A stretch of 63,677 nt of DNA, filler included, from Candidatus Woesearchaeota archaeon (GTDB taxonomy: Archaea > Nanobdellota > Nanobdellia > SCGC-AAA011-G17 > CAYFGV01), in the NCBI GenBank assembly GCA_964342845.1. It is 4 parts of 4 records of this genome, joined end to end, with 100 filler letters (N's around TTAATTAATTAA, not from the genome) between each part and the next. Parts side by side here need not be neighbours in the genome. Positions count along the whole stretch, not along the records: positions 17,507 to 34,584 come from CAYFGV010000013.1; 3 more parts are not named here. One strand, 5' to 3'. How positions within the stretch are numbered: position 1 is the first letter of the stretch; each line of letters starts with the position of its first letter. Below, one piece after another: positions 10,199 through 50,007 of the stretch. A program made the position numbers and the translations under genes. The notes beneath the pieces were generated by a model. It was given only the letters and a program-made list of their open reading frames with translations, was not told the DNA's origin and did not search any database.

Positions 10199-10279
10199 TT
10201 TGAAACGAAAGTTTTAATATTATGTTTATTTATTAATATGATGTGTAATAAAATTTGTGTTGTTTAGTGGGAGTGGTAT

Positions 10280-13200: not shown

Positions 13201-14077
13201 GGATTTTGACGGGTTTGTTTATGATCTTTCTGTTCCCGAGAATGAAAGTTTTATTTGTAATAATGTTATAGCACATAATACTTTAGAGATACCTGGAGAG
13301 GCGTTAAGGAAGTTGGGTTATAATATTCAGTCTCTAAAAGTAAGAGCTGCTTTGGTAAAAGGTGGTGGTGAGATGGCTGCTGATGAAGGGATAAGGACTA
13401 GTTTAAGGTTAGGAGATAGTGCATTGATTGTGGGAGAGGTGAGGTCGACAGAAGCAATAGCACTTTATGAGGCGATGAGGATTGGTGCAATGGCTAATGT
13501 TGTTGCTGGAACTATTCATGGTGATTCTCCTTATGGTGTTTTTGATAGGGTTGTTAATGATCTTGGAGTTCCTAGAACTAGTTTTAAGGCTACTGATTTG
13601 ATTTTAGTTGCGAACCCTGTAAAGACTGCTGATAGGTTAAAGTTTGTTAGAAGGCTGATGAGTATTACTGAAGTTAGAAAAGAGTGGGAAGAGGATCCTT
13701 TGAAAGAGGGTGGTTTTGTTGATTTGATGAAGTATAATCCTAAGACTGATATGTTGGAGCCTACAGATAGTTTAATAAATGGTGATAGTGAAATTATAAA
13801 GAGTGTGGCTGGAAATGTTAAAGAATGGGCAGGTAATTGGGATGCTGTCTGGAGTAATATTTTATTAAGAGCAGAGATTAAGAAAAAATTGGTAAATTAC
13901 GCTAATGAAGTTAAGAATAAAAATTTGTTAGAAGCTAAATTCGTTATACAAAGTAATGATGAATTTCATAGGATTAGTGAGAGTGTTAGTGAAGAAGCAG
14001 GGGAGTTAGATAATCGTAGAATTTTACATGATTGGTTAGTTTGGTTGAAAAAGGCAAGTAAAAATGTTGAAAGATAA
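10280..14077 (+). CDS. VirB11/TadA/FlaI-family secretion or pilus ATPase containing an intein
   Basis: Walker A GTRSSGKT, Asp box ITVED|TLEI, LRLGDSALIVGEVR, GTIHG. Confidence 0.92.
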   Translation: MADYEIIKEGTEDVMKIDYSKGREVPSLADSKFCMSDVVDKILKVPRVNRVIFVQTRNYQYSTEQIDMLREIANLYSYLTKQKKFLNVYSYGKDFRYAGTRFNAMQYLILNLLKGDPVGCYVELKRFLREEKVLQERIKDAAFLEASKKYLEMLNEFYFLLDKSKIIVRLKEEVAGFSIGNREIYRELFRPIITPNFMITRLMAQPPLDGHEVDSYSIGDVDVMIFKVPGDIAYLYHVVPPEFKISEDQYELIEVARTVLAEHKPEAEEFIDPERMRYNFFNIGRDLISELATHRGMDLDYAELEEMVNILVRYTVGFGFVETLLSDSKIQDITLNGPVGETPIFVVHADYGECKTNIVPSVEDGESWATKFRLLSGRPLDEANPVLDTELILPSVRARVAVITKPLNPFGLGYALRRHRDKPWTLPLFIDNGMLNPLAAGLISFFVDGARTMLVAGTRSSGKTSLLGSVLVEIMRKFRLITVEDSVTGDCEIIVRKSKKIKRTTIGQLIDSSIEKYGCWYNLSEHEILGNDEDVEILSMNKKGIVEFNRPSKLIRHKVNKPVYRILTRTGREINVTGDHSLFNLGDAAEIKEVKVGSLKENDFIAVPRKLNFCNKERKYLNLLDYLDKLNKGYFEGECVGELFKRYCHEINQLAKEHGHNRSLRSHWRRREFIPLKIVKDLVSLGYDVSVLKDSCYRGSKNSGTLPVLIELDENLLTFIGLWIADGCYDRSSVLLSVVEEENREIAYALARQYGFNVKFHSDSFSLMLNSTTLKTIMREVLDLKGNAYTKRIPEWVYNLSDGQIANVLKGIFSGDGCVADKEIVIPLASLNLLKDIQTLLLNFGIIFRIGVMRKDKTYNASISSLKFWKIFKEKIGILPKDKLDKLNRLCLKESTHDCSDVIPLNLGVKKKVKQIYSDFRDRDYIYRDNNVGREKLAGMLLQIKEESEIISNLRMLSLSDVFWDRIKKIEVIEDFDGFVYDLSVPENESFICNNVIAHNTLEIPGEALRKLGYNIQSLKVRAALVKGGGEMAADEGIRTSLRLGDSALIVGEVRSTEAIALYEAMRIGAMANVVAGTIHGDSPYGVFDRVVNDLGVPRTSFKATDLILVANPVKTADRLKFVRRLMSITEVRKEWEEDPLKEGGFVDLMKYNPKTDMLEPTDSLINGDSEIIKSVAGNVKEWAGNWDAVWSNILLRAEIKKKLVNYANEVKNKNLLEAKFVIQSNDEFHRISESVSEEAGELDNRRILHDWLVWLKKASKNVER
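11735..13279 (+). mobile_element. Intein (515 aa) with LAGLIDADG endonuclease in pilus ATPase
   Basis: Starts SVTGD after ITVED; block B VTGDHS; LWIADG and GIFSGDG; ends VYDLSV...VIAHN followed by Thr. Confidence 0.93.
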
Positions 14078-17406: not shown

Positions 17407-17506
17407 NNNNNNNNNNNNNNNNNNNNNNNNNNNNNNNNNNNNNNNNNNNNTTAATTAATTAANNNNNNNNNNNNNNNNNNNNNNNNNNNNNNNNNNNNNN
17501 NNNNNN
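17407..17506. other. Artificial contig linker (N44-TTAATTAATTAA-N44)
   Basis: Same 100-nt structure occurs three times; gives stops in all six frames. Confidence 0.98.
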
Positions 17507-18562
17507 ATCACAACCAGAATCTAAAAGAGGTTGTTTACACTCCTCAGGAGCATGTGTCGTAATCATAATTTCACTACAATCCTCACCTGAAGTAACCCCT
17601 GCCTCAACACATTCAGGAGGCATATGCATATCAAACTTAGATTCCATCATACCATCTTCTATATCATCAAAAACATCTTGCAAATGATCAGGAAGCCTCG
17701 GCATTTCCAAACTATCTAATTTGTCACAAGCAGCCTCATCACCATCAATGTCACAAGCAGTAGCTAAAGGTGCAGCAGCAGAGCAAACATTAGCAAATTC
17801 AGTAAAAGGTATCTCATCACATCTACAATCTTGCCCAGAGGTTTCAAAACACGCAGACATTATCTCTCCAAATTTTTTAGCTTCTTTTTTCTGTTCTTCT
17901 GTCAAATCTTCATCTAATTCTCTTTGCCATTTAGGCGAATCTTCATCACTTTTACAAACACTATAATATTCATTAACATCTAATCCAGCTAACTCCTCAC
18001 ATAATTCTTTAATCTTAGAAGCAATCTCAGCAGCAGTCGCAATTGACCTTTCCTTATCAATAACATCATCAACAAATTCTCCCCTTGCATCTTCTGGGAT
18101 TTCAGCCTCAATTTCTCTTAAAGTATTTCTAATAGCAGCAGCACTTCTTTTAGCTTCTTCACTCTCTCCAGGCTCAACCTCTTTTTCTAATTCATCAGCA
18201 AATCCTTTATAATTATCCAAAGCCTCAGAAGCAGCATCAATATTACCAGCTTCAACCATAGCCTTAATCTCTGCTACTTTTTCTTCTTTATGATCTAAAT
18301 CACTTCCAAAACCATCAAAAATTTCATCAACAAAATAAAAACCACTATCAGGAGTTATACCTGCCCCAACTTCGAGTTCAGCATCTTCATAGCCTTCAAA
18401 AATATCATCTTCAGATTCTTCCTCTATAAAAACCTCTTCTTCTACAAATCCGTCTTCAAAAAAATCTTCTTCCTCAAAAACAGTCTCTTCTGGAATAACT
18501 TCTTCTGAGTCTAAAACACCTTCCTCTTGAGCAAAAGCAAAACCAATTACTAAAAGAAACAT
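17507..18562 (-). CDS. Secreted acidic Cys-rich protein (DUF5667-like GITPDS motif), truncated by contig end
   Basis: Signal peptide ...GFAFAQ; GITPDSGFYFVD; many Cys residues. Confidence 0.7.
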
Positions 18563-18631
18563 AACAAAAAATAACTCTTTTTTTCCATAAACTAGTTTTA
18601 GGTTCTCTTATTTATATAATTAACGGAAAAA

Positions 18632-18793
18632 TCATAACTTCTTCTTCAACACCTTTAAAAATTCTTTATATTCTTCTTCTGCTTTTAAAAACTTCAAAGA
18701 AGGAAATATTACAGAATCTCCCTCTTTAACAAACTCTTTCAATTCTATATCGACCAACTTTTTCAAAACAAACTTTTCTTCTTTAGTTAACAT
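18632..18793 (-). CDS. 53-aa hypothetical protein (not in ORF track)
   Basis: MLTKEEKFVLKKLVDIELKEF...LKKKL*; host-like codons; TATA-like element upstream. Confidence 0.6.
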   Translation of the reverse strand: MLTKEEKFVLKKLVDIELKEFVKEGDSVIFPSLKFLKAEEEYKEFLKVLKKKL

Positions 18794-18828
18794 AATAGTA
18801 ATCTAACTTCAAGAATTTAAATAACTTC

Positions 18829-20187
18829 CTATACTTTAAACTTCTTCAAAACCTTCTCATGTCCTTTCCAATCAAAAGCATTTTTAAAAACATCTTCTAT
18901 TCTTTCAACAGGAATAATTTTAACACCTTTCAAAACATCTTCCCCTAAAATAATATCTTTTTCATTAGCCTTAGGAACTATAATTCTTTTAATACCTGCA
19001 TTAATAGCAGCCTCTGCTTTTTGAGTAACTCCTCCAACAGCCAACACCTCACCACGAATAGATAAAGAACCAGTCATAGCAGTATCTTGTCTAACAGGTA
19101 CTTTCTTAAGAGCAGATAAAATAGCAACTGCAACAGCAATAGAAGCAGAATCTCCTTCCACACCTTCATTAGTACCTACAAACTGTATAAAAATATCATA
19201 CTTCTCTTTAATATCTTCTCCAAAGTATTTCATTATAGTAGCTGAAACATTTTTAACAGCTTCCTTAGCTATCTTACCTAATTGACCTGTAGCAATAAAC
19301 TCAGCCTTCTTACCACCTAAAGTAATTTCAGACTCAATAGGTAACACCATTCCAGAACAAGCACCATTGCCACCCATAACAGCCAACCCATTAACCCTTC
19401 CTACTTTAATACCAGAAACCAAAATAACTTGATACTTTTTCTTATTTTCAATATATTTATCAGATAGTTGTTGTTCTAGTGTTCTAGCTAATCTCTTAGC
19501 TTTCACAACATGTTTCCTCTCAACAATTTTAGCATTTGTCTCTAAAGCCAAATCACCAGCTGCTCTAATCAAACCACCTAACTCTCTTAACCTTAAAGTT
19601 AATTTTTCAGAAACACCTGCTCTTTTCCTAGCCTCTTGGATTATTTCTAAAACAGCCCCTCTATCAAAATGAGGAATCTTTCCGTCTTTAACAACCTCTT
19701 GAGCAATAAACTGAACAATCTTCCCTCTATTTTGTTTAGTATCATCCATAGTATCATTCATATAAACTTCATAACCATAACCTCTTATCCTAGACCTCAA
19801 AGCAGGATGCATCTTACTAACAGAATCCAAAGTACCAGCAGCAACTAAAATAAAATCAGTAGGAACTGGTTCACTCCTAACCATAGCACCAGAACTTCTT
19901 TCAGATTGACCTGTAATAGGATACTTTTTCTCTTGCATTGCTGTCAACAATTCTTGTTGAGAATGAGGTTGCAAATTTCCAACTTCATCTACAAACAAAA
20001 CACCTCCGCTTGCTCTATGAATCAGACCAGGAACTAATCTTTGATATGCAGGAGTACCAAAACCTCCTGAATTTTTAACTAATATTTTATTAGCAAACAA
20101 ATTTCCAGTTTCGGTTGTCAAATTATATAAAAATCCTTTATAAGGAATCTTTTCAATTTTCTTTATTTTTTCAGTTTTTACTTCCAT
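18829..20187 (-). CDS. lonB: LonB protease C-terminal half preceded by split-intein C-fragment
   Basis: 39-aa IntC then SGGFGTPA, Walker [16 protein letters not shown], catalytic EGDSAS and GGVTQK (Ser-Lys dyad). Confidence 0.93.
20071..20187 (-). mobile_element. Split intein C-fragment (IntC, 39 aa)
   Basis: [40 protein letters not shown] contains blocks F and G. Confidence 0.9.
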
Positions 20188-21251
20188 TCTCTTAAATCTT
20201 TTTGCTCTAATATAAAATTTAATGATTTGTCTGTTAACCTCAAGTTATTTTTAACCCATTGTTCTGAATAATTCCTTTGCGTCAATTTATTTAAGGTATT
20301 TGTTAACTTATTAAATCTCTCTAATTTTAGATTTTTTAGGTTATTTAGCGTATTTATTAACTTTTCTGATTTAGCTCTAGAATAATGAATATCTATATTT
20401 TTATGAAAATTCATTAAATTATCAAAGTTCAAATTTATAGCCAATTTCATCAAAAATTTATTTTCATCTCCTTTATGTTTAAAAGTGTAAATCTTATCTG
20501 CATTAACATTCTTTCTTCTTAAATATCTTTTAATTTTACTTAAAAATTCTATTCTATTTTGATATAATTCCTTTTTACAAACCATACCAATATCTAAAGA
20601 ATCTGTTCTTCTGTTATCTTTATGTATTTTAGGAATTCCTATTTCATTTCCAAAAAAAGAACCAAAAAAACCATCTTGTAGTCTATCATCTTTCAATATC
20701 CATTGCGGTATTTTTAACTTTATTTTTGATTTTCTCCCAATAGGCGCACCTAAAGCTTGGAAAAATCTAATAACATTTCTATTTGTATTTTGATAACACC
20801 AAGAATGGCCATATTCCCCTCCTTCAATAATTCTTGAATTCTTTTCTATATCTTTTCCAAAAATTTCTTTTAAATCTTCTCCAAATTCTTTAACAGAATC
20901 TTTTTCTGAGCTTGATAAAAAAATTCCATTTAAATTTTCAAATATACCTCCGTCTCCAAAAGTAGTTCCCATTACTTTAGCTATTAAAGAAAGATTAGGA
21001 TTATTTTTAGTTAATGGAATCAAACCCTTTTGTTTCAGCCACTGCACAGTCTGAATTGGAACAGGAACATGTTTTTTAGCATGCCACCATCTCGTCTTTC
21101 CAATCGGTTGTCCTAAAAGTTTAGCTATCTTTTTGTAACCAAATTTTGGATTCTGTTTTTTAATTTTGCTGTAGTCATAATACAACCTACACTGCTCTTG
21201 TTGCCTTTTATCATAAGTATTTATTAAATCCTGCTCTGTTAAAATTATCAT
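20178..21251 (-). CDS. Free-standing LAGLIDADG homing-endonuclease-like protein (likely start MIILTEQ at 21251)
   Basis: GTTFGDGG and GSFFGNE motifs; N-terminal HTH-like [13 protein letters not shown] box 21 nt before ATG 21251. Confidence 0.85.
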
Positions 21252-21272
21252 ATTGAAATATAGGAAAACACA

Positions 21273-21327
21273 TTTATAAACCTTATGTGCGTGTTGAAAT
21301 CCTTGCAATGCTAGAAAGTTTTTAGCA
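21273..21327 (-). repeat. Repeat A copy 1 (55-bp promoter-containing element)
   Basis: TGCTAAAAACTTTCTAGCATTGCAAGGATTTCAACACGCACATAAGGTTTATAAA; 50/55 identical to copy 2 by manual alignment. Confidence 0.92.
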
Positions 21328-21519
21328 GAAGAAGTAGCTAATTTTATAAAATAATTTCCTGCCCACCATTAAGAGATTAATAATAAATTTTTAAAAAAGA
21401 AAACAAAAAGAAGAATTAACTAAAAACAAAGTCTAAAACAAATCCCTAAATTTTCTTTAAAACAGCAATATTCATAAAGAAGTCGAAAAATTTATTTAGA
21501 AACTGTTCTCTTTAATCTC

Positions 21520-22266
21520 CTATAATTTATCCTCCAAAGATTTTCTATATTTTCTTACCCTCGATTTAATAGCAATCGGAGTTCTTTTTGAATATCCCAA
21601 ACCAACAAGTCCTTGAACAATCTTTCTTAGATCTGGTCTACCATCTTTATCTTGACAATCTGCTTGTTGTAATAAATTATAAGCGTCTATAGTTTCTTTT
21701 TCTGTCCACAAAGAACAACCTCTAGCAAGAGCCCCTTTTTCGGCATTAGCCCTGGTTTCTTCTGGCGATAGCCCATGTATCCCTAATTTTTCCTCATATA
21801 TTTTTCGTCCGGCTTTTTGACTTACTTTCTTTCTTTTTTCCTTAGCCATATTCCTAAGCCCTTTTTCTCCCCAATAAGAAATCTTTCCTGCTCTTTGGCT
21901 GTCTTTCCGAACTTGATCAGGAGTTCGTGAAAATACTCCCTTTTTATCTTCACATAACCTTTTACTACTTTCTCTATTGTGTTCTTTTGCTAAAGTTCTT
22001 CTTTCGTCTTCTTCAATTAAGCCCATATATGCTCTAACTTTGAGACCTCCTTGGTGTCCAGAAATTGCCCTCTGTATTCCACTCCAAGCAACACTATAGT
22101 TAACTTGGTATTCTAATTCAACCCTTAGAAAGTTCCCAATTTGAGCTATAGAATTTCCTTGCCGATATAGTTCCGCGATTTCAGGATGATCTTTTTGCAG
22201 AGTTCTACCTAATTGAATCGCATTTTTCATAGCTACAAGCTGTTCATCTGTAGGTCCACTTTTCAT
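21520..22266 (-). CDS. Basic putative DNA-binding protein with ~25-aa repeats and a Myb/SANT-like C-terminus
   Basis: Repeated KG..../SQ+AG+ units; WTEKE...RKIVQGL...KRTPIAIKSR. Confidence 0.55.
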   Translation of the reverse strand: MKSGPTDEQLVAMKNAIQLGRTLQKDHPEIAELYRQGNSIAQIGNFLRVELEYQVNYSVAWSGIQRAISGHQGGLKVRAYMGLIEEDERRTLAKEHNRESSKRLCEDKKGVFSRTPDQVRKDSQRAGKISYWGEKGLRNMAKEKRKKVSQKAGRKIYEEKLGIHGLSPEETRANAEKGALARGCSLWTEKETIDAYNLLQQADCQDKDGRPDLRKIVQGLVGLGYSKRTPIAIKSRVRKYRKSLEDKL

Positions 22267-22511
22267 AAAAAAAAGTAAATTTTTGTATACTTAAGGCTTT
22301 CTGTTTGTTGCTACTATTAAATATATACTATATCCAACAAGCAAAAATTCTTTTTAGAAAAAAGAAATAAAAAAGCGAGCTTTTCTCTCTTGTTTATTGA
22401 TCATTGGAAGAAACCATCCCCAAAAATAAAAATTAAAATTCACAAGGAAGCTTTCAGTTTCAGTTTATGGCTCACTAAGGTTCGAGCAAACAAAACAGAT
22501 TATGTGAAATA

Positions 22512-22781
22512 TTATTCAATAACCACCTTTAATCTTTTCAAAATTTGTTTTACTTCTTCTACTTTCATATGAAGAATTTTTGACTCTTTTCTGCCTTCAA
22601 TCTCATCCATAACTCCTAATTCATCAATTAGATCTTTGATTTCTCCATCTAATTTTTGATAGGTTCCAAACTCTTCGTTTAGGAATTTACTACATATTTC
22701 AGCTATTTCTTCTCTAATCTTTTCACAATCTTTACATGTTAATTGTTCTAATTTCTTAATCAATCTACTTATCGATTTCAT
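22512..22781 (-). CDS. Hypothetical protein
   Basis: 89-aa ORF with upstream CGACGGCTTTATTAA promoter-like element. Confidence 0.6.
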   Translation of the reverse strand: MKSISRLIKKLEQLTCKDCEKIREEIAEICSKFLNEEFGTYQKLDGEIKDLIDELGVMDEIEGRKESKILHMKVEEVKQILKRLKVVIE

Positions 22782-22894
22782 CGTATAATTTAATTTGTTA
22801 TTTTAATAAAGCCGTCGATTTACACGTAATTTTGTTTTATGTTTCCTAAATAACACGAGGGTCAAGGATTGTGAAGCAACCGGAAAAGTCAGAG

Positions 22895-23161
22895 TCAATT
22901 CTGATCTATTGGTCGATAAGATCTAACATGTTTTAAGTAGTAACCATCTGGGCAATCATCATCTGCAGCAAACAATTTACCTCTTTCTTCTCTAACTGCA
23001 TCCGAACAATAGAGGTTTATCTCATCACGACCTACAACATAATCTAGACTTAAATTACCATTAGCATGGCCGATTTCTGCCCTTTCCACTACAGGAGTAC
23101 CTTCCCACTTATATACAACAGTTTCTTCATCTAATGTTGGCAAATAGTCTGGAATTACCAT
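22895..23161 (-). CDS. Hypothetical protein flanked by a 13-bp inverted repeat
   Basis: 88-aa ORF with TATATAAA upstream. Confidence 0.6.
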   Translation of the reverse strand: MVIPDYLPTLDEETVVYKWEGTPVVERAEIGHANGNLSLDYVVGRDEINLYCSDAVREERGKLFAADDDCPDGYYLKHVRSYRPIDQN

Positions 23162-23265
23162 AAAAAGAGGAATATGATAAGATTTATATATGTTGTGAAT
23201 TGACTCTGATTGAAACTAACCCATACATATGCAAAAATTCAATCCCTAACTAGATTTTTTTACAA

Positions 23266-23634
23266 TCACTCCAAAACAAAAACTTCACTCCCTTTCCTCA
23301 ACTTAAAAGCTTCAACCCAACTCTTCCTACCTTTTTTCTTAACAGCAACCTTATGCTCAGGACTAACAATTAACTCTTTACCAGATTCAGTAACAACTTT
23401 AACCAAATAAGGTTTATCAGATTCATATTTATTCACAGACAAAACACCAGAATCAATAACCTTCCCTTTTTCTTCACCTAAAACATCTAATTCACCTTCA
23501 CTCAAATAACTAGCCAAATAACCATCTTTCTTAATCAAATCCAATTTATGTTTCCTCAAAAACTTGTTCACTTCTAATGAAATCTTAGATTTCTTACCAT
23601 TTTTCTTCAAAATAACATTCCCACTAGAAAATGA
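23266..23634 (-). mobile_element. Split intein N-fragment (IntN, 122 aa)
   Basis: Begins SFSSGNVILKK after DPLQ; block B LIVSPEHKV; ends LRKGSEVFVLE*. Confidence 0.88.
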
Positions 23635-24243
23635 TTGTAACGGGTCATGAAGCACATCCCCAAGCAAAGCCCCAGCATGAGCTCCAGTACCATCAAAAAA
23701 AGGAGCTGTCTTCTTCTCAAAATTATCTATTAAAATTTTAGGAACAGGATCCTTTTCACTCATCCTAGCCTTCTTACCTAAGTTTAAAAATAAAACCAAA
23801 CAAACAACAAACATCATGCTACCTATCAAAGAAGCTGCAGCCATAATATCTCCATAATTAGACCTAATCCACCAAGGAGAAATAACTGCCAAAATCAACA
23901 AAATAAACAAAAAAACATTCTGAAATTTCAAAGAACTTTTCTCTTGTATTTTAGCCTTTTCAACTAATTCCTTGCCCTTGCCATATGAAAAAGATTTTAT
24001 AAGTGGCAAATTATCATCACTAAAATTATGAAAACTAACAACATCCAATAATTTCTCTTTAGGTAATAAAGAGGATAATGCTTGACCTATTAAACTTTTT
24101 CCAGTACCAGGCTGACCAATTAATAATAGATTTCTTCTCTGCTTAGCAACCTTTTTAACAATATTTACAGCTTGTTCTTGTCCAATTACAGTATCAATAA
24201 GTTCCTTTGGAACCTCAACATCCTTTGTAGTTTTAAAAGCCAT
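23266..24243 (-). CDS. lonB: LonB protease N-terminal half ending in split-intein N-fragment
   Basis: VIGQEQA, Walker A GQPGTGKS, two TM helices, GALLGDVLHDPLQ, then intein sequence. Confidence 0.93.
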   Translation of the reverse strand: MAFKTTKDVEVPKELIDTVIGQEQAVNIVKKVAKQRRNLLLIGQPGTGKSLIGQALSSLLPKEKLLDVVSFHNFSDDNLPLIKSFSYGKGKELVEKAKIQEKSSLKFQNVFLFILLILAVISPWWIRSNYGDIMAAASLIGSMMFVVCLVLFLNLGKKARMSEKDPVPKILIDNFEKKTAPFFDGTGAHAGALLGDVLHDPLQSFSSGNVILKKNGKKSKISLEVNKFLRKHKLDLIKKDGYLASYLSEGELDVLGEEKGKVIDSGVLSVNKYESDKPYLVKVVTESGKELIVSPEHKVAVKKKGRKSWVEAFKLRKGSEVFVLE

Positions 24244-24266
24244 ATTTAAAAAATAAATATATTTAT

Positions 24267-24527
24267 TTAAATTATATCTTCCTCAGAAACAACTATAAAA
24301 TCCCCAACAGCAACCACAGCACCATAAGGTATCATAAAATCTCCTTCCTTCTTCTCTAAATCAAGACCATGAATAAAAGCAGTAGGATTTCTTAATATTA
24401 GTTCTATTAATTCCCCTGTTCGTGTTTCAAAAGAAAGATTACCTATTTCTCCTAACTTCTTTCCTGTTTTAGTAACAACAGTTTTCCCCATCAATTGTTT
24501 AGCAAATTTCTTTTCTTCTCCAGCCAT
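24267..24527 (-). CDS. PRC-barrel protein (CdpB-like)
   Basis: LMGKTVVTKTGKKLGEI...IPYGAVVAVGDFIVV. Confidence 0.85.
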   Translation of the reverse strand: MAGEEKKFAKQLMGKTVVTKTGKKLGEIGNLSFETRTGELIELILRNPTAFIHGLDLEKKEGDFMIPYGAVVAVGDFIVVSEEDII

Positions 24528-24555
24528 GATTAAACACCTTGTTAAATGATAATAT

Positions 24556-25179
24556 TCACTTATTTATATATCTTTCTAACGGGTTTAACAATCCAAAAGC
24601 TCTAACTATCTTCAAAGACAATGGTTCTTTATAAATAATAAGTCTATCAAACCTATACAAATCAACCAATTCTTTAAAAAATAACCCATTATCTAATCCA
24701 GACTGATCTACACTCGCTAAAAATAAATCTGTCTGAGAAACATTCTCTAAACTTTCATTCCCTTTTAATACATTTAAAACTTCTCCTTTGTCTAAATTAT
24801 AATTTTCAATACTAACCTCATCAGCAACAAAATCATCTACAAAATCAACTTCAATCAAAAGTAAGAGATCAGAATATCCTTTTAAAACATCATAATCAAA
24901 ACTTTCCTCTGTTTGCAACTCTTCATAACTTTTCTCTCCAGAAAAATCTACATTATAACCAAACTGAATTTCATCACTACTATAAAAAATAAGATTAACA
25001 TCCCCATCCTCAAAAATAGATTTAATCTCTTGATAATCCTGATAAACAATATATCCAAAAACTCCGAAAATAAGAATAAAAAACAACATAAAAACTAGAA
25101 CAACTTTAAATATCTTTTTTACAATAAAAACTGCTAAAAACACAGCAAAGAAAAACAGTAGTATAGTTATTAATTCCAT
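24556..25179 (-). CDS. Membrane-anchored hypothetical protein
   Basis: Two N-terminal TM segments followed by an acidic domain. Confidence 0.7.
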   Translation of the reverse strand: MELITILLFFFAVFLAVFIVKKIFKVVLVFMLFFILIFGVFGYIVYQDYQEIKSIFEDGDVNLIFYSSDEIQFGYNVDFSGEKSYEELQTEESFDYDVLKGYSDLLLLIEVDFVDDFVADEVSIENYNLDKGEVLNVLKGNESLENVSQTDLFLASVDQSGLDNGLFFKELVDLYRFDRLIIYKEPLSLKIVRAFGLLNPLERYINK

Positions 25180-25220
25180 AAACTTAAACTATATCTAACT
25201 ACTTAATAAACATTTTGCAA

Positions 25221-25573
25221 CCCCCACCCACCTATTTTTCCTATGGAATCTAATATAATAAAAAAAAGTTCGTTTGGAGTACTAGGAACCTCCTTTCCTA
25301 AGAAATCCTTAATTAATATATTATATAAAATAAAAATAAAAAAGTAAGAAATAAAAAATCCTTTAAATTCAATAAATACAAACCTCAAAACCTAAGAATT
25401 AATTAATAATAATAAAAGCATTATTATATTATTATATTTAAGTTTTTCTATATTATATTATATATTTACAAAACACTCATTAACTCCACATGAAATCAAG
25501 GTGTTACCTTATAATCAAAACACAAAAAACACCCAACTTTTAATAAAAAATAATCTCCACACGAAATCATGGT
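25221..25573. other. Putative replication origin (ORB-like boxes around an AT-rich unwinding element) upstream of cdc6
   Basis: Plus-strand boxes CTCCACATGAAATCAAGG (25484) and CTCCACACGAAATCATGG (25555); minus-strand boxes TTCCATAGGAAAAATAGGTGGGTGGGG (25221-25248) and CTCCAAACGAAC (25268-25279); AT-rich 25310-25470. Confidence 0.72.
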
Positions 25574-25635
25574 CTCAGAGAGATATAATCAAATATCTAA
25601 ATGTTTAAATATCTTATAACTAAGTTAAAAACACT

Positions 25636-27942
25636 ATGCCTCCGAAAACAAATCTAAATCAATTTTTTAAAAATTATCTAGAGAAAACTCCTTTGTTCAA
25701 AGATAAAAAAGTATTGCAATCTTCATATACTCCAGAAACAATACCTCACAGAGACGAACAAATAGATCAAGTAGCAGCAATGTTAGCCCCTTCACTAAGA
25801 CTAGAAAAACCATCTAATTTATTTTGTTATGGAAAAACTGGCTGTATCTCAGGAGAAAGTTTAATTTACACAGATAAAGGTAATGTAAAAATAAAAAACA
25901 TAGATACAAATTCTAAAGTATTGAGTTTTAATACTAAAACAAAAGAGTATGAATGGTCTTCTTTTATTTTCCTTAGGTTCGAAAATAAAGATAAACTATT
26001 AAAAATCACTTTAGATAATGGTCATGAACTTATTGTAACTAAAGACCATCCTTTATTAAAAGACGACATGGAATGGAAAAAAGCAGACGAATTAAATATA
26101 AATGACGAATTGGTTGTAGCTTACAATTTACCAAACCCAAACTTAAAAGAAATCCCCTTATCCTTGGCTAGGTTATCTGCTTTTGTTATTGCAGATGGTT
26201 CATTAAATAGAAGAAAAAGAAGAACAAAAGATAGCAAAGGATATTGGTATAATTCAGACAGGCAAAGATTTAGATATTTTAGTGACGATCAAGAACTTTT
26301 AAATTTAGTACAAACAGATATTTCACAATTGTTCAAGAACTACACACCTTCAATAGTTATCGACAAAGGTAAATGTCCATATGTTCAAGTTATTTCGCAG
26401 GAAGTTTGTCAAACATTAAATCAAATAGGAATTCCCTTTGGGAAAAAAAGTGATATTGTAGAAATTCCACAAATTATCTTAGAATCTTCTTCTATTATCC
26501 AAAGAGAATTTTTAAAAGCACTATTTACAGCTGATGGAACTGTAAGCCAACAAACTTTCCAAATAGAATATTATTCCAACTCAAAAAAATTATTACAGCA
26601 AACTTCTTATCTTTTACACCAAGAAGGAATAGCTTGTAAAATAAGAAATAAATCTGCTAAATGTAACGGAAAATTATTCAACTCATTTAGACTTTACATA
26701 AATGGAGAACAAAATTTAACTAGGTTTTACCATAAAATTGGATTCCACAGCACCATAAAACACCAAAGAATGAAGAATCTTTTCAAAAGATACAAAGTAC
26801 ACAAACCAAATCCAAAATACCATAACAACCATATAACTTACAAAATAAAAAACATACAAGAAACTTACGAAGATAAAGTTTACGACTTAACTGTTCCAAA
26901 AAATCATAATTTCATAGCCAATGGAATAATTTCACACAACACAGGCAAAACCCTTTCAATTAAACATGTAACAAACCAAATATTAGAAGTAGCAAAAGAA
27001 CAAAATATATCTGTAGAATGTTTTTATTTAAATTGTAAATTAAAAAGAGTAGCAGACACAGAATATAGATTAATAGCTCAATTAGCAAGGGCTTTCGGAG
27101 AAGAAGTCCCTGCAACAGGATTGCCAACAGACGAAGTATACAAACTTTTCTTAGAAAAAATAGATCAAGAAAAGAAATTAATAATATTAATCTTAGATGA
27201 AATAGACCAATTAGTTAAAAAAGCAGGCGACGAAATACTTTATAATTTAACCAGAATAAATTCAGAATTAAAAAATGTAGAGTTATCAATCATAGGAATA
27301 TCAAACGATCTCCTCTTCACAGACCATATTGACCCAAGAGTAAAATCATCTTTATCAGAAGAAGAATTAGTTTTTCCACCATACAATGCAATACAGATTC
27401 AAGATATTTTAAGGGAAAGAGCAAAAAAAGCATTTGCAGATGAAGTTATAGAAGATGGAGTCATAGAAAAATGTGCAGCTTATGCAGCTAGAGAACATGG
27501 AGACGCAAGAAGAGCTTTAGAACTTTTAAGAGTTGCAGGAGAATTAGCAGAAAGATCAGACAAAACAAAAATATCAATAGAACATATAGATCATGCAGAA
27601 GAAAAAATTGAAAGAGACAGAATAAATGATATAATAGCCACGCAACCAAAACAAGCACAACTAACTCTATTAGCTTTATTTCGTTTAGCACAAAAAGACG
27701 AAAAGTTTTATACTGGTGATATTTTCAAGGTTTACAAAGAATACTGTAGTAAAATAGGTTTAAAACCATTAACTCAAAGAAGAATTTCAGATATTCTCTC
27801 AGAACTAGACTTATTAGGTATTATAACATCAACAGTGATAAGTAAAGGAAGATACGGAAGAACAAGAGAAATTGTTTTAGCAATACCGGATGCAACATTA
27901 CCTAAACTGACAACAATTTTAAAACAAGCTCTTGACCTATGA
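25636..27942 (+). CDS. cdc6: Orc1/Cdc6 initiator containing an intein
   Basis: IPHRDEQI, YGKTG|TGKT, LDEID, HGDARRAL, winged-helix SKGRYGRT. Confidence 0.95.
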   Translation: MPPKTNLNQFFKNYLEKTPLFKDKKVLQSSYTPETIPHRDEQIDQVAAMLAPSLRLEKPSNLFCYGKTGCISGESLIYTDKGNVKIKNIDTNSKVLSFNTKTKEYEWSSFIFLRFENKDKLLKITLDNGHELIVTKDHPLLKDDMEWKKADELNINDELVVAYNLPNPNLKEIPLSLARLSAFVIADGSLNRRKRRTKDSKGYWYNSDRQRFRYFSDDQELLNLVQTDISQLFKNYTPSIVIDKGKCPYVQVISQEVCQTLNQIGIPFGKKSDIVEIPQIILESSSIIQREFLKALFTADGTVSQQTFQIEYYSNSKKLLQQTSYLLHQEGIACKIRNKSAKCNGKLFNSFRLYINGEQNLTRFYHKIGFHSTIKHQRMKNLFKRYKVHKPNPKYHNNHITYKIKNIQETYEDKVYDLTVPKNHNFIANGIISHNTGKTLSIKHVTNQILEVAKEQNISVECFYLNCKLKRVADTEYRLIAQLARAFGEEVPATGLPTDEVYKLFLEKIDQEKKLIILILDEIDQLVKKAGDEILYNLTRINSELKNVELSIIGISNDLLFTDHIDPRVKSSLSEEELVFPPYNAIQIQDILRERAKKAFADEVIEDGVIEKCAAYAAREHGDARRALELLRVAGELAERSDKTKISIEHIDHAEEKIERDRINDIIATQPKQAQLTLLALFRLAQKDEKFYTGDIFKVYKEYCSKIGLKPLTQRRISDILSELDLLGIITSTVISKGRYGRTREIVLAIPDATLPKLTTILKQALDL
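25843..26940 (+). mobile_element. Intein (366 aa) with LAGLIDADG in the Cdc6 Walker A motif
   Basis: CISGES start; VTKDHP; FVIADG and ALFTADG; VYDLTV...IISHN|T. Confidence 0.95.
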
Positions 27943-29594
27943 ACAAAGAAGTAACCATTAATTTTTTTCTGAAAAACAACTTTCTAATAAATCCAGAACT
28001 CTTTAAAGAATTAAAAGAACAAGACTTAGATGAATTTTTATCAAAACTTTCAGAAAAAATAAAAGATAAGAATAACCTTACAATTATAAACAAAGATATT
28101 TTCAAATTAATTTTAAAAACAACTAAAACTCCAGAAATAAATTGGAATGAATTTGAAAAATCAAGAGCATTATTAGAAAAAGGAAAAGATGAAAAAATAT
28201 ACAAAACATTTTTAGACATTATAAATTATCACACTTCAAAAGAAAAAAAAGATTTCTTAGATAGTTTAATAGAAGAAATAAAACAACCAGCAGAACAAAT
28301 AACAGAGTCAAATGACTTGGAAGAAGAATCAACAATTTACCCTGTAATGGTTTTAAAATCTTATAATAAACCACCACAAAAAAAACAAGTCCAGGATTTT
28401 GTAGGGCTTTATAAACAAAGATATCACCAACTAAAAAAAATACTTCTTAATAGACCAGAATTACAAACAGCAACTTCGATAAACAGATTACATTCAAAAC
28501 CACGGGGAGAACAAGTATCAATCATAGGAATTGTTTCAGATAAAATGATTACAAAAAACAACAACATAGCTCTAACTTTAGAAGATCCAACAGGAAAAAT
28601 AAAGATAATGATCATGCAAAAAGAATCAATCTACGAAGCAGCCAAAGATATTGTTTTAGATGAAGTTATTGGACTAAAAGGAAACATGGGTGATAAAATT
28701 GTATTTACAAATAAACTTTTCACACCAGATATACTTCAAACAAACGAATCAAAAGTAACAAAAGAAGAAATCCACGCAGCATTTATATCAGACATACACA
28801 TAGGATCAAAAATGTTTTTAAAAGAAGAATTTTTAAAATTTATAAAATGGCTAAACATGAAAACAGGAAATTCCCAGCAAAAAGAAATTGCCAAAAAAGT
28901 CAAATATTTATTTATTGTTGGGGATATAGTAGACGGTATTGGAATTTATCCTAATCAAGATGAAGAACTTTATCTAAAAGACATTAGAGAACAATATAAA
29001 GAAGCAGCAGAATACATTTCATTAATTAGAAAAGACATACAAATAATTTTATGTGCAGGAAACCACGACGCATTAAGAATTTCAGAACCACAACCAAACT
29101 TAGACAAAGACCTTACAGAAGACTTATATAAATTAGATAATGTCACAATAGTTTCAAATCCTTCTTTAATTAATATAGCATCAAATAAAGATTTTCAAGG
29201 TATAAATGTTTTAATGTATCACGGATATAGCTTTGACTATTATGTAGCAAATGTAGAATCAATAAGAAACAAAGGCGGTTATGATAGAGCAGATATAATA
29301 ATGAAGTTTTTATTACAAAAAAGACACTTTGCTCCAACACATACGTCTACTTTGTTTGTTGCAGACCCAGAACAAGATAATTTAGTTATAGACAAAACTC
29401 CTGATGTCTTTTGTTCAGGACACGTCCATACTTCTTCTGTTTCATCTTATAATAATATAACTTTAATTTGTGCATCATGTTGGCAAGCTAAAACACCTTT
29501 CCAAGAAAAAGTAGGGCACAATCCAGAACCAGGAAAAGTACCAATATTAAATTTAAAAACAAGAGAAGTAAAAATAATGAACTTTGTAAAATGA
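27939..29594 (+). CDS. polB: DNA polymerase D small subunit DP1
   Basis: OB fold LEDPTG; SDIHIGS, GDIVDG, GNHDA, HGYS, SGHVH phosphoesterase motifs. Confidence 0.93.
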   Translation: MNKEVTINFFLKNNFLINPELFKELKEQDLDEFLSKLSEKIKDKNNLTIINKDIFKLILKTTKTPEINWNEFEKSRALLEKGKDEKIYKTFLDIINYHTSKEKKDFLDSLIEEIKQPAEQITESNDLEEESTIYPVMVLKSYNKPPQKKQVQDFVGLYKQRYHQLKKILLNRPELQTATSINRLHSKPRGEQVSIIGIVSDKMITKNNNIALTLEDPTGKIKIMIMQKESIYEAAKDIVLDEVIGLKGNMGDKIVFTNKLFTPDILQTNESKVTKEEIHAAFISDIHIGSKMFLKEEFLKFIKWLNMKTGNSQQKEIAKKVKYLFIVGDIVDGIGIYPNQDEELYLKDIREQYKEAAEYISLIRKDIQIILCAGNHDALRISEPQPNLDKDLTEDLYKLDNVTIVSNPSLINIASNKDFQGINVLMYHGYSFDYYVANVESIRNKGGYDRADIIMKFLLQKRHFAPTHTSTLFVADPEQDNLVIDKTPDVFCSGHVHTSSVSSYNNITLICASCWQAKTPFQEKVGHNPEPGKVPILNLKTREVKIMNFVK

Positions 29595-32500
29595 TAGCTT
29601 CAAAAGAAATGCAGGAATACTTCGAAAGTATAAACAAAGAAGTAAAAAAAACATACGATATAGCTAGTTTAGCAAGGAAAAAAGGTTTAGATCCAGAACA
29701 AAAAATAGAAATTCCTTTAGCAAGAAATATGGCAGAAAGAGTAGAAGGTTTAATTTCTATTGCTGCTCCAGAGATAATCGGGAAAGGTATACCTAAAAAA
29801 ATATTAGAATTAGAACAAGCACATGGAAAGGCAAATTGGAGAGTAGCACTAACAATAGCTTTAGAAGTTGCTCAAGAAAAATTTTGTAAATTTGAATCAA
29901 AAATGAAAGCAATAGAAACAGGACTAAGAATAGGTTTTGCATATGTGACTATTGGGGTTGTTTCCTCACCCTTAGAGGGGTTTGTAGCGGTAGATATTAA
30001 AAAAAGGTTAGATAATCAAAAAGAATTCTTTTCATTAAGATTTGGAGGACCTGTAAGAAGTGCAGGAGGAACAGCAGCTTCAGCTTTTTTATTAATTGCA
30101 GATTACATCAGAAAAGAATTGGGTTATTCCACTTATGATGCGACTGAACAAGAAATAAAAAGATCTGTAACTGAACTAACGGATTATCATGAAAGAATAA
30201 CAAATTTACAATACTTTCCATCAGAAGAAGAAATTACTTTTATGATAAAAAACATACCTATTATGATAGATGGTGACCCCTCAGAAAAAATAGAAGTTTC
30301 TAACTACAAAAATCTCTCAAGAATTGAAGCAAACAAAATAAGAAATGGTTTTTGTTTAGTTGTGGGGGAGTGTATATGTCAAAAAGCACCAAAAGTTTGG
30401 AAACAACTAGAAAAATGGGGCAAAGATTTTGGAATGCAAGATTGGGATTTCCTAGAAGACTTTGTAAAACTACAAAAAAAAATAAAAGCAAAAGGAAAAA
30501 AAGAAACATCAGAAGAAAAAATAAAACCAGATCACACATTTATAAAAGACTTAGTAGCTGGAAGACCTGTTTTAACACACCCTTTAGCTAAAGGAGGATT
30601 TAGATTAAGATACGGAAGGGCTAGAAACACAGGTCTGTCTGCAATGGGTTTAAATCCAGCAACAATGATTATCTTAGATAACTTCATTGCGACAGGCACA
30701 CAACTGAAAGTAGAAAGACCAGGTAAATCAACAGTAATAAATGCTGTGGATACAATAGAAGGGCCAATTGTCAAACTAAAAAATCAAAATGTAGTATATA
30801 TAGAAAACAAAGAATCAGCACTAAAATATAAAGAAGAAGTAGAAGAAATTTTATTCTTAGGAGACCTTTTAGTTAATCATGGAGACTTCTTAGATAGAGC
30901 TCATGTTTTAGCACCACCTGGTTATTGTGAAGAATATTGGACACTTCAATTAGAAAAAAAAGAAGATTCAGTAGAAAAGATTTCAAAAGAATCTAATATA
31001 GAATTACCTATAGTTGAAAAATTATTAAAAGAACCACTAATAACAAAACTTTCACCAAAAAATTGTTTTAATATTTCTAAACAATATAAAATACCTTTAC
31101 ACCCAAAGCACACAATACGCTGGACAGAAATAAACCACAAAGAACTTTTAACTTTGTTTAGTTGGTTAAGTAAAGCAACAATTAAAGATAGCAAGATAAT
31201 ACTACCTATAGTAAAAAATATCGAAGACATAAATCCAAAAAGAGTTTTAGAAAAAATGGGTTTACCTCACTCAGTTGTCACAAATGAATACATAGTTATA
31301 GAAGATTCAGAACCACTAAAAATATCTTTAGGATTTTATACTAGAGACTTAGATATTAAAAAACTAGTATCTTCTGTTACAGAAAAAAAATCTGTTTTAG
31401 AAATTATCAACTCCATTTCTGAAGTGGAGTTAAAAGACAAATCTGGTTTAACAATAGGAGCAAGAATGGGTAGACCAGAAAAAGCTAAAATAAGAAAATT
31501 AACAGGCTCGCCACACGTCTTATTTCCTGTAGGAGAAGAAGGAGGACGGTTGAGATGTTTCCAATCAGCTTTAGAAGCAGGAAAAGTTTCAGCAGAATTC
31601 CCAATTTACCTTTGTAATAATTGCAATAAACAAACAATTTATCCAATATGTCATCTTTGCAAATCAAAAACAACAAAACAATATTTTTGCATAGATTGTA
31701 ATAAATTAATTGAAACCAAAGAATGTAAAGAACATAGAGTTATACCTTACAAACTACAAGATATAAATATAAATGAATATTTTGACGCAGTTCAAAAAGA
31801 TTTAAAATTAAAAGAATTTCCTGCCTTAATCAAAGGAATTCGTGGAACTTCTAACAAAGACCACACACCAGAAAATCTAATCAAAGGAATTTTAAGAGCA
31901 ATACATAATGTATCGGTCAACAAAGATGGTACTATTAGATATGATATGACTGAAACACCAATAACGCACTTTAAACCAAAAGAAATAGGAACTAGTATAA
32001 AAAAACTAAAAGAGATAGGGTATAAAAAAGATATTTACAACGAACCATTAATATCAGAAGAACAAATTATAGAGATTAAAGCACAAGATATAATATTGCC
32101 TGCTTGTTTAGACTCTTTTGATGAACCAGCAGACATAATCTTTTACAGAACTACAAAGTTTATAGATGATTTATTGAAAAATTTATATAGCTTAGAACCA
32201 TTTTACAATCTAAAAAATAAAGAAGACTTAGTTGGCCATCTTGTCATTTCCTTAGCACCACATACATCTGCAGGAACAGTTTCAAGAATAATAGGTTTTT
32301 CAAAAACACAAGGATTTTATGCACACCCATTATTACATTGTGCTGTTAGAAGAGATTGTTTTGATTACGATACATTTATTCCTCTAAAGAAAAACAGAAA
32401 TTGGAGAATCACAAAAATAGGAAAATTAGTCGAAGAACTAAATCCTAAGATTATTGTGGATAGTTGGGGAACAAAAGAAAAAAAAGTTAGTAGATTTGAG

Positions 32501-34519: not shown

Positions 34520-34522
34520 AAA

Positions 34523-34584
34523 CGCCCCCTCCAGGATTTGAACCCGGGCTCTAACCTCCGCAAGGTTATGTCCTATCCACTAGA
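34523..34584 (-). tRNA. tRNA-Arg(GCG), 5'-truncated by contig end
   Basis: Reverse complement gives TAACC-TTGCGGA-GGTTA anticodon arm, GGTTCAAATCC T-loop and GGGGGCG acceptor 3' strand. Confidence 0.88.
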
Positions 34585-34684
34585 NNNNNNNNNNNNNNNN
34601 NNNNNNNNNNNNNNNNNNNNNNNNNNNNTTAATTAATTAANNNNNNNNNNNNNNNNNNNNNNNNNNNNNNNNNNNNNNNNNNNN
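34585..34684. other. Artificial contig linker
   Basis: N-TTAATTAATTAA-N, 100 nt. Confidence 0.98.
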
Positions 34685-49907: not shown

Positions 49908-50007
49908 NNNNNNNNNNNNNNNNNNNNNNNNNNNNNNNNNNNNNNNNNNNNTTAATTAATTAANNNNNNNNNNNNNNNNNNNNNNNNNNNNNNNNNNNNN
50001 NNNNNNN
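49908..50007. other. Artificial contig linker
   Basis: N-TTAATTAATTAA-N, 100 nt. Confidence 0.98.

Follow-up and report, generated by a model that had tools for sequence, protein, structure and literature searches.

A lonB gene probably fractured by a trans-splicing split intein in a Woesearchaeota archaeon and its relatives

The lonB Locus

In the window considered here, a 63,677-nt stretch of DNA from a Candidatus Woesearchaeota archaeon (assembly GCA_964342845.1, genome G000), the gene of the archaeal protease LonB is present as two intact open reading frames (ORFs) of the minus strand, 23266-24243 (325 amino acids, aa) and 18829-20187 (452 aa), separated by 3,078 nt. The first ends in the N-terminal half of an intein (IntN) and the second begins with a C-terminal half (IntC), and the sequence makes it likely that lonB is a fractured gene whose halves are joined by a trans-splicing split intein. 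The initial annotation had described two such same-strand ORFs about 3.1 kb apart on one contig, and both are indeed found on contig C13 (window 17507-34584; 17,078 bp), which has no N inside, the closest N runs being 17407-17506 and 34585-34684.

The N-extein (residues 1-203; 23635..24243, minus strand) carries Walker A at residues 43-50 and two segments that are hydrophobic by hydropathy, at about 103-128 and 131-157, and ends in HDPLQ. The N-half corresponds to positions 3-196 of the LonB model TIGR00764 (E 2e-52), and the N-extein profile aligns with the solved archaeal Lon structures 4ZPX and 3K1J as far as the same junction. The C-extein (residues 40-452; 18829..20070, minus strand) starts with Ser+1 and continues through Walker B (64-68), the AAA lid and the protease domain with its catalytic dyad, Ser347 and Lys390; the C-half covers TIGR00764 positions 194-607 (606.8 bits, cut-off 516.6) and matches the Pfam families Lon_C and LonB_AAA-LID. 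Together the halves tile the model, and all features of archaeal LonB, an AAA+ module with a membrane insertion, Walker A and B and a Ser-Lys dyad, are present over the two genes, the break falling between Walker A and Walker B, inside the ATPase core. In the intein-free LonB of the nearest relative, G001, HDPLQ runs directly into SGG at the insertion site, in agreement with the earlier proposal that joining the exteins restores DPLQSGG. Every element that had been assigned to the first gene (Walker A, membrane segment, HDPLQ, a 122-aa IntN with Ser1 and SPEH, stop) and to the second (a 39-aa IntC, the SGG start of the extein, Walker B, Ser-Lys dyad) could be located.

The split is real and not an assembly accident. 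The four proteins of the locus are each recorded on several contigs (N-half 4, C-half 5, endonuclease 2, 248-aa ORF 6; longest 34,128 bp), although some of these contigs may be re-assemblies of a single sample; the endonuclease and the 248-aa ORF also have one-residue variants, and four sequencing runs from three studies, one of which may be the source, hold 75-92% of the sampled words. Recurrence of the layout across genomes, described below, is the stronger argument. The genome measures 573 kb and is 84.8% complete, and the check for an intact lonB elsewhere in it, by tblastn with each half and with the intein-free LonB and by an unfiltered hidden Markov model (HMM) search, found no second Lon within that assembled portion. 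Where the best protein matches are named, they carry Woesearchaeota or Nanoarchaeota labels.

The Intein Halves and the Endonuclease

IntN (23266..23634, minus strand; 122 aa and a stop) matches TIGR01445 above cut-off. Its Ser1 is Ser204 of the N-half protein (23632-23634), its block B motif SPEH occupies residues 294-297 with His297 as the block B histidine, and Tyr273 (23425-23427) takes the position of the NX motif. IntC (20071..20187, minus strand; 39 aa) starts with Met, has a block F with Asn at F4 and ends Val-Lys-Asn before Ser+1; it matches PF14890 positions 117-155 weakly (E 0.024), and its identity comes also from the family alignments. Neither half contains a cysteine. An AlphaFold2 model of IntN alone, not of the IntN-IntC pair, has a pLDDT of 89 and finds its closest Foldseek matches in the archaeal inteins TvoVMA and CDC21-1 (TMq 0.78-0.80), so IntN is predicted to have a HINT fold.

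Class 1 inteins are defined by Cys, Ser or Thr at position 1, His B10, a C-terminal Asn and a nucleophile at +1 (PMC4031507), and these core residues are all present here as Ser204, His297, Asn39 and Ser40. The usual class 1 helpers Thr B7, Asp F4, His F13 and His G6 are absent, their places being taken by Ser, Asn, a residue other than His, and Lys. The block F and G variants are common to contiguous Thermococcus Lon inteins. The initial annotation had called both the Lys-Asn end and Ser1 atypical, and neither description holds, as contiguous Thermococcus Lon inteins end likewise and Ser is the commonest first residue of the family (116/238). A penultimate His is reportedly missing from the Pab and Pfu Lon inteins (PMC3906313), and how the P. 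abyssi Lon intein splices is the subject of a paper (O'Brien 2010) cited as reference 84 of PMC4031507.

Read from the N-half towards the C-half, the gap contains three ORFs (88, 89 and 248 aa) and then the gene of a 357-aa homing endonuclease (HEN), none of which figured in the earlier account of the locus. The HEN (20178-21251, minus strand) is free-standing, of the intein-type LAGLIDADG (DOD) kind, and its stop overlaps the start of the C-half by 10 nt. It matches the intein segment NF038162 (E 1e-27) and clusters of DOD-type LAGLIDADG proteins (Atlas score 0.94), has no match to a Pfam family, and shares 33-37% identity with the HEN domain that contiguous Lon inteins carry at this insertion site. 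Asp100 and Glu203, the acidic ends of two LAGLIDADG-like helices, are invariant in the family alignment, and the acidic pair is retained in 19/19 long free HENs and 28-29/29 fused ones.

Distribution and Series of States

The survey of DPANN lonB loci that the initial annotation had called for reveals that the split recurs. A LonB C-half starting with IntC is present in 15 of 61 related genomes (G000 included), and in the phylum 40 of 401 genomes have an IntC match, 32 of them in frames of 454-526 aa, the split type, a count that includes G000 and an unpublished genome, G388; the remainder lie in frames of 1,061-1,529 aa (six), in a 796-aa frame (one) or are cut by a contig end (one). On the other side of the break, IntN follows the junction in 119 of the best 120 of 679 N-half homologues, most of which end 116-136 residues on, and the same N-half layout is found in more than 100 other clusters at 90% identity.

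For 101 loci the whole arrangement was examined; four failed the motif pattern (split-type on inspection) and six duplicates were dropped, leaving 91. The HEN is fused in frame to IntN, with IntC as a separate gene, in 30 of these; it stands free between the halves, the state of the window, in 26; nine have no HEN and both intein halves intact; 14 have only the HEN or the C-half on the fetched stretch; and 12 have a contiguous intein. The split type thus amounts to 79/91 loci, and in nearly all cases IntC begins 37-45 residues ahead of the junction. Of 187 longer HEN homologues, the best 120 without exception have the order ExtN-IntN-HEN and lack IntC. Among 75 loci classified from the best 80 of 218 metagenome loci, ranked by their likeness to split queries, no copy is contiguous, and a metagenome scan with the window's IntN gave no close relative.

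The contiguous inteins that had been stated to occur in this region of Lon were found, including those of Thermococci at the same site. Five have the Lys-Asn end, two from Thermococci, one from Micrarchaeia and two from complete genomes of the same class as the window, and in FastTree trees rooted on Thermococci they branch outside all split forms. A second allele at this site, always contiguous (L154, L155, L158, L161, L162 and L163), has Cys1, a Thr-His-Asn end and 427-435 aa. One further contiguous copy, the 171-aa mini-intein L138 (5981-8371), appears to be a re-fusion, represented by a single record, because it is nested among split forms in the intein and extein trees (support 0.99 and 1.0, respectively, with L112). 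From these states we infer two breaks, one separating IntC from the HEN and one separating the HEN from IntN, with either order compatible with the trees; three free HENs fall outside the fused clade with weak support.

Some records show further peculiarities. L138 is labelled Methanosarcinales and its exteins group with Woesearchaeota-labelled records; its single-sequence model (pLDDT 45) was too poor and was left unused. In L094 (5275-9989) LonB is in three pieces: its C-half carries another intein, with Cys1, a fused HEN and a Thr-His-Asn end, that is itself split into overlapping frames, which could alternatively be a frameshift error. L082, L107, L117 and L076 have a further contiguous intein just after Walker A, with or without the split intein, and the intein-free lonB L024 (G057:C2:49040-50872) has one in-frame TAA inside the match.

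Selection and Covariation at the First Residue

The ratio of nonsynonymous to synonymous substitution rates (dN/dS) of both halves, another of the checks proposed at the outset, was computed in relatives and lies below 1 for all modules. Pooled pairwise values are 0.10 for the N-extein (7 pairs), 0.11 for the C-extein (27 pairs), 0.30 for IntN (24 pairs, one contiguous), 0.16 for IntC (48 pairs) and 0.16 for the HEN (8 pairs).

Residue 1 of IntN is Ser in 116, Cys in 74 and Thr in 48 proteins, which accounts for all 238 (240 fetched, minus one intein-free and one missed by the pattern; they were not selected on residue 1), and positions 3-7 vary freely. No cysteine at all is found in 82/119 short IntN sequences. 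The nature of this nucleophile goes together with the Tyr273 column, which among 233 aligned IntN holds Tyr in 156 of 161 proteins with Ser or Thr1 and in none of the 72 with Cys1, these having His (38), Gln (31), Asn (2) or Phe (1). On a tree built without the two columns, the residue class changes 32 times, Tyr 31 times and the two jointly 35 times; 12 of 16 contrasting sister pairs switch together, the other four being Ser with His.

The Tyr273 column, where an Arg/Lys-Tyr stands, aligns by HMM with the Lys-His of the Aes123 PolB1 structure 9HTH, whose depositing paper assigns an NX His to that intein (PMC11923092), and the His of this Lys-His is probably that NX His. According to a published rule, Ser1 inteins have an NX His preceded by Lys or Arg, with two exceptions among 58 that have Tyr or Asn (PMC10189870). 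The window's motif is Lys-Tyr and so departs from the rule, and the split Lon family has Tyr at NX with Ser or Thr1 and His or Gln with Cys1.

Mosaicism and Probable Mobility

On a quick C-extein tree of 51 genomes of the same order (G057 omitted because of its in-frame stop), it takes 14 changes to account for the 19 split and 32 intein-free alleles, compared with a shuffled mean of 15.5, and families mostly group together; split and intein-free sister pairs occur in three genera (support 99, 96 and 93). The modules of these loci are mosaic. The exteins of L114 and L118 are 98% and 95% identical, their IntN 58% and their HENs 60%; L079 and L089 have identical IntC and 44% identical IntN; and the best partner of the window differs module by module. 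In 18 free-HEN loci, rejection of the extein trees by the data for IntN and the HEN amounts to 277-679 log units, compared with 27-100 for the exteins mutually. The approximately unbiased (AU) tests are over-sensitive, since even the C-extein data reject the N-extein tree (reverse p=0.017), and we have therefore relied on the larger likelihood gaps and on the pairwise tracts.

Identity profiles were drawn for eight pairs; the profile of L089/L129 is an artefact caused by aligning unequal inserts. In L104/L258 and L114/L118, DNA identity is about 90% up to the N-junction and 40-47% from exactly that point on. Of five segments compared, the first 90 nt of IntN diverge most in 6/7 independent close pairs, to which relaxed constraint on the IntN start loop could add. 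The split cassette looks mobile between relatives, because genera contain a mixture of split and intein-free alleles and the splice junction is where mosaic tracts begin, and homing would be the simplest cause. The initial annotation saw in the intein a possible orthogonal split-intein tool; the shuffling of IntN and IntC among family members suggests cross-reactivity within the family.

Passenger Genes, Expression and Neighbourhood

The spacer between IntN and HEN measures 2,014 nt here and contains the three small ORFs, all of the minus strand. The 88-aa ORF (22895..23161), with no Pfam or NCBIfam match, is flanked by a perfect 13-nt inverted repeat (22889-22901 and 23197-23209), of which the genome has one further copy with one mismatch, and which is possibly due to chance or possibly the ends of a small mobile cassette. 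The 89-aa ORF (22512..22781) is probably helical and has only sub-threshold Pfam matches. The 248-aa ORF (21520..22266) is basic, with a weak helix-turn-helix (HTH_38, E 0.013, under cut-off) and a best Atlas score of 0.78, which is a lead only, below 0.9; it is the ORF found on six contigs, plus its one-residue variant. None of the three has a homologue in the other fetched loci or elsewhere in the genome, for which reason they appear to be local passengers. At third codon positions IntN resembles the exteins (T 0.50, C 0.01), whereas the HEN and the passengers are A-richer, and this difference suggests different residence times.

Genome-wide, the word TTTWWA is most frequent 27-31 nt ahead of start codons: over the five positions -31 to -27 it has 137 matches in 274 genes that lack a near neighbour upstream. 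This suggests leaderless mRNAs. Such TATA-like boxes stand 28 nt upstream of the ATG of the N-half (24266..24271, minus strand), 29 nt upstream of that of the HEN (21275..21280, minus strand) and 29 nt upstream of that of the C-half (20211..20216, minus strand), the last inside the HEN coding sequence. They are supportive and not decisive, because about half of comparable genes have one. A TATA-like box precedes IntC in 13/26 free-HEN loci as against 2/22 fused loci with an ATGA overlap of HEN and IntC, and a Shine-Dalgarno-like word in 1/26 as against 14/22.

The window as a whole is made up of contigs C12, C13, C14 and C16, joined by N spacers (17407-17506, 34585-34684, 49908-50007), and ORFs reaching these are cut. 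A cdc6/orc1 gene with a contiguous LAGLIDADG intein is located at 25636-27942 (plus strand), followed by the PolD small subunit (27939-29594) and the PolD large subunit with an intein near residues 956-1427; beside lonB in the fetched loci, a PRC-barrel gene is found in 129 and cdc6 in 79. Upstream of cdc6, 25180-25635 is an AT-rich gap (~23% GC) with a change of GC skew and imperfect inverted repeats, a possible replication origin. Elsewhere, a FlaI/TadA-like secretion-type ATPase frame (10268-14074, plus strand) has a large contiguous intein from near residue 491, and the window contains no tRNA.

Interpretation and Alternatives

The best reading of the locus, and in our view a very probable one, is that a membrane-bound half and a soluble half of LonB are ligated after translation, as the initial annotation inferred; wide conservation, purifying selection and an invariant nucleophile all argue for it. 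Judging from the spacing of the TATA-like boxes, a membrane-anchored ExtN-IntN and a soluble IntC-ExtC would be produced from separate, probably leaderless transcripts. IntN, the fold of which is predicted, and IntC would then bind and assemble into one HINT fold. By analogy with class 1 chemistry, Ser1 would undergo an N-O acyl shift aided by His297 and the NX Tyr, Ser+1 would take over the ester and Asn would cyclise, resulting in a full-length LonB subunit.

Several observations weigh against this reading. Asp F4 is replaced by Asn in 61/61 family members, the intein of the window lacks both His G6 and the NX His, and the replacement of Thr B7 by Ser is seen in 3/238 IntN. Other split inteins have been described with oppositely charged halves, whereas both halves are positive here (IntN +9, IntC +4), leaving charge complementarity unsupported at the level of whole fragments. 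The dN/dS pairs do not include the window, and their synonymous sites approach saturation. That Lys-Asn/Ser+1 is conserved in the locus sets is in part a circular result, since these residues were a requirement of the search patterns. The covariation of residue 1 with NX falls short of a strict phylogenetic test, as well-supported branches leave seven independent pairs, five concordant, none discordant and two uninformative (p=0.0625). Finally, a profile search did not find the N-half in four of five genomes picked for a lone C-half (G004 and those of L083, L088 and L142), one of them 100% complete by markers; an assembly gap is the likely but unproven explanation, because in each of the four the contig ends within ~530 nt upstream of IntC.

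The missing helper residues would also fit a LonB of two non-covalently associated chains, held together by the intein or cleaved free of it and never ligated. The intein-less broken Aeh1 NrdA assembles in this manner (cited in PMC2677866), and cleavage at both junctions would likewise conserve residue 1 and Asn. Such a LonB would, however, be parted between Walker A and Walker B within its ATPase core; contiguous relatives with the same Asn at F4 and Lys-Asn end must excise from a single chain, split lonB genes without intein halves are not seen among the 61 relatives, and residue 1 covaries with an active-site position, all of which makes this arrangement distinctly unlikely. Cis splicing of a contiguous precursor made by programmed frameshifting, read-through or RNA splicing is far less probable still. 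It is prompted by the ATGA overlap of HEN and IntC in 22/30 fused loci, where a -1 shift would join the frames, but here 2,014 nt and three ORFs lie between IntN and HEN, the Met of IntC is conserved, and the Shine-Dalgarno-like word in 14/22 ATGA loci fits re-initiation. Frameshifting is not required, and as an obligatory step it is ruled out, because the gap is a different one in 8/30 fused loci (-11 to 243 nt) and opposite-strand genes intervene between the halves in L069 and L070. We give equally little credence to a misassembly, or to a pseudogene in decay whose intact counterpart lies in the 15% missing from this 84.8%-complete genome, as neither ORF is interrupted, every catalytic motif of Lon is present, the layout recurs in dozens of independent genomes, and the contig and sequencing-run records given above argue for the same conclusion.

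As for origin, homology points to descent from a contiguous intein that contained a HEN and occupied the classical Lon site, and which would have broken between HEN and IntC and, here, also between IntN and HEN, the gaps afterwards acquiring passenger genes. The opposite route, in which a free-standing endonuclease invaded a mini-intein (Dassa 2009) and the IntN-HEN fusions are secondary, would account for the 10-nt overlap with the C-half and its embedded promoter and for the three free HENs outside the fused clade (support 0.26-0.87). We regard it as unlikely, given that the HEN is homologous (33-37%) to the domain in contiguous inteins of the same site, that those inteins branch outside all split forms, and that IntN and HEN are fused in frame in every one of the best 120 of 187 longer homologues. 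Regarding spread, the HEN with both its acidic residues probably still drives homing or allele replacement. More boldly, and only tentatively, we suggest a split intein that is still homing: an IntN/passenger/HEN/IntC cassette would replace DPANN lonB alleles, passengers included, and could re-fuse, and its chemistry would flip between thioester and oxyester (Thr1 included) through a change from His or Gln to Tyr at NX. Less likely is an explanation without homing, in which lonB split once, long ago, and ordinary recombination with intein-free alleles then removed the split form time and again. Precise loss would yield the same split/free sister pairs, the HEN is broken or absent in many loci, and the faster evolution of inteins, compared with exteins, in itself reduces their identity; yet the acidic pair is kept in 19/19 long free and 28-29/29 fused HENs with a dN/dS of 0.16, the tracts start exactly at the insertion site, synonymous divergence included, and HEN identity is down to 60% between hosts whose exteins are 95-98% identical.

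Comparison With Known Systems

A description of a split Lon intein was not found in the literature searched, InBase, supplements and most subscription journals lying outside the search, and a supplementary intein list could hold the family. One source lists ten LonB inteins, all of Euryarchaeota (PMC4760082), and the word 'intein' is absent from a preprint on 208 Nanobdellota genomes. The family described here would be a large natural split-intein family in a cellular gene outside DNA metabolism, in which membrane-bound and soluble precursors must meet. Contiguous, HEN-fused split, free-HEN, HEN-less and re-fused states are seen in one gene family, and this series would represent a reversible way of arriving at a split intein, for which no endonuclease has to invade. 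What selects the nucleophile at position 1 is described as unclear, with no Cys intein usefully converted (PMC10189870); the coupling of residue 1 with NX makes this choice directly testable and, if true, the change from His or Gln to Tyr at NX would be a natural recipe for turning a Cys intein cysteine-less.

The locus resembles the fractured genes of Dassa 2009 (PMC2677866) in that a host gene is broken by a split intein, with both halves on the same strand, in order and at one locus, and in the free-standing endonuclease between them that overlaps the C-half start, by 6-69 bp in the published cases and by 10 nt here. It differs in its endonuclease, which is the intein's own LAGLIDADG rather than a GIY-YIG or Vsr-like enzyme, in its spacer of 2,014 nt with passenger genes rather than 27-51 nt, and in its host, a cellular protease beside cdc6 and polD rather than a phage gene of DNA metabolism; unlike in those fractured genes, the fused IntN-HEN state is common in the lonB family. 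With cyanobacterial DnaE and Nanoarchaeum equitans PolB the locus shares a cellular host gene and the canonical split site, with an IntN of ~120 aa and an IntC of ~39 aa. The DnaE and PolB halves are unlinked (PMC2677866, PMC4760082), whereas the lonB halves are mostly linked and the HEN is kept, and the DnaE split has been described as a single irreversible event, in contrast to lonB with its intein-free alleles in the same genera and one apparently re-fused copy.

The contiguous Lon inteins of Thermococcales (L153, L156) occupy the same site and have the same block F Asn and Lys-Asn end, with a HEN 33% and an IntC 55-61% identical to those of the window; they form one polypeptide with Cys1, whereas the window's intein is split and has Ser1. 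The cysteine-less split inteins Aes123 PolB1/CLm, PolB16 OarG and LCGC14 are similar in their Ser1, Ser+1 and lack of Cys (PMC10189870, PMC11923092, PMC12707363, PMC13014065). The window's intein departs from them in having Tyr for the NX His, no His G6 and Asn at F4, and whereas their host is a phage PolB, that of the lonB family is Lon and its residue 1 switches among Ser, Cys and Thr.

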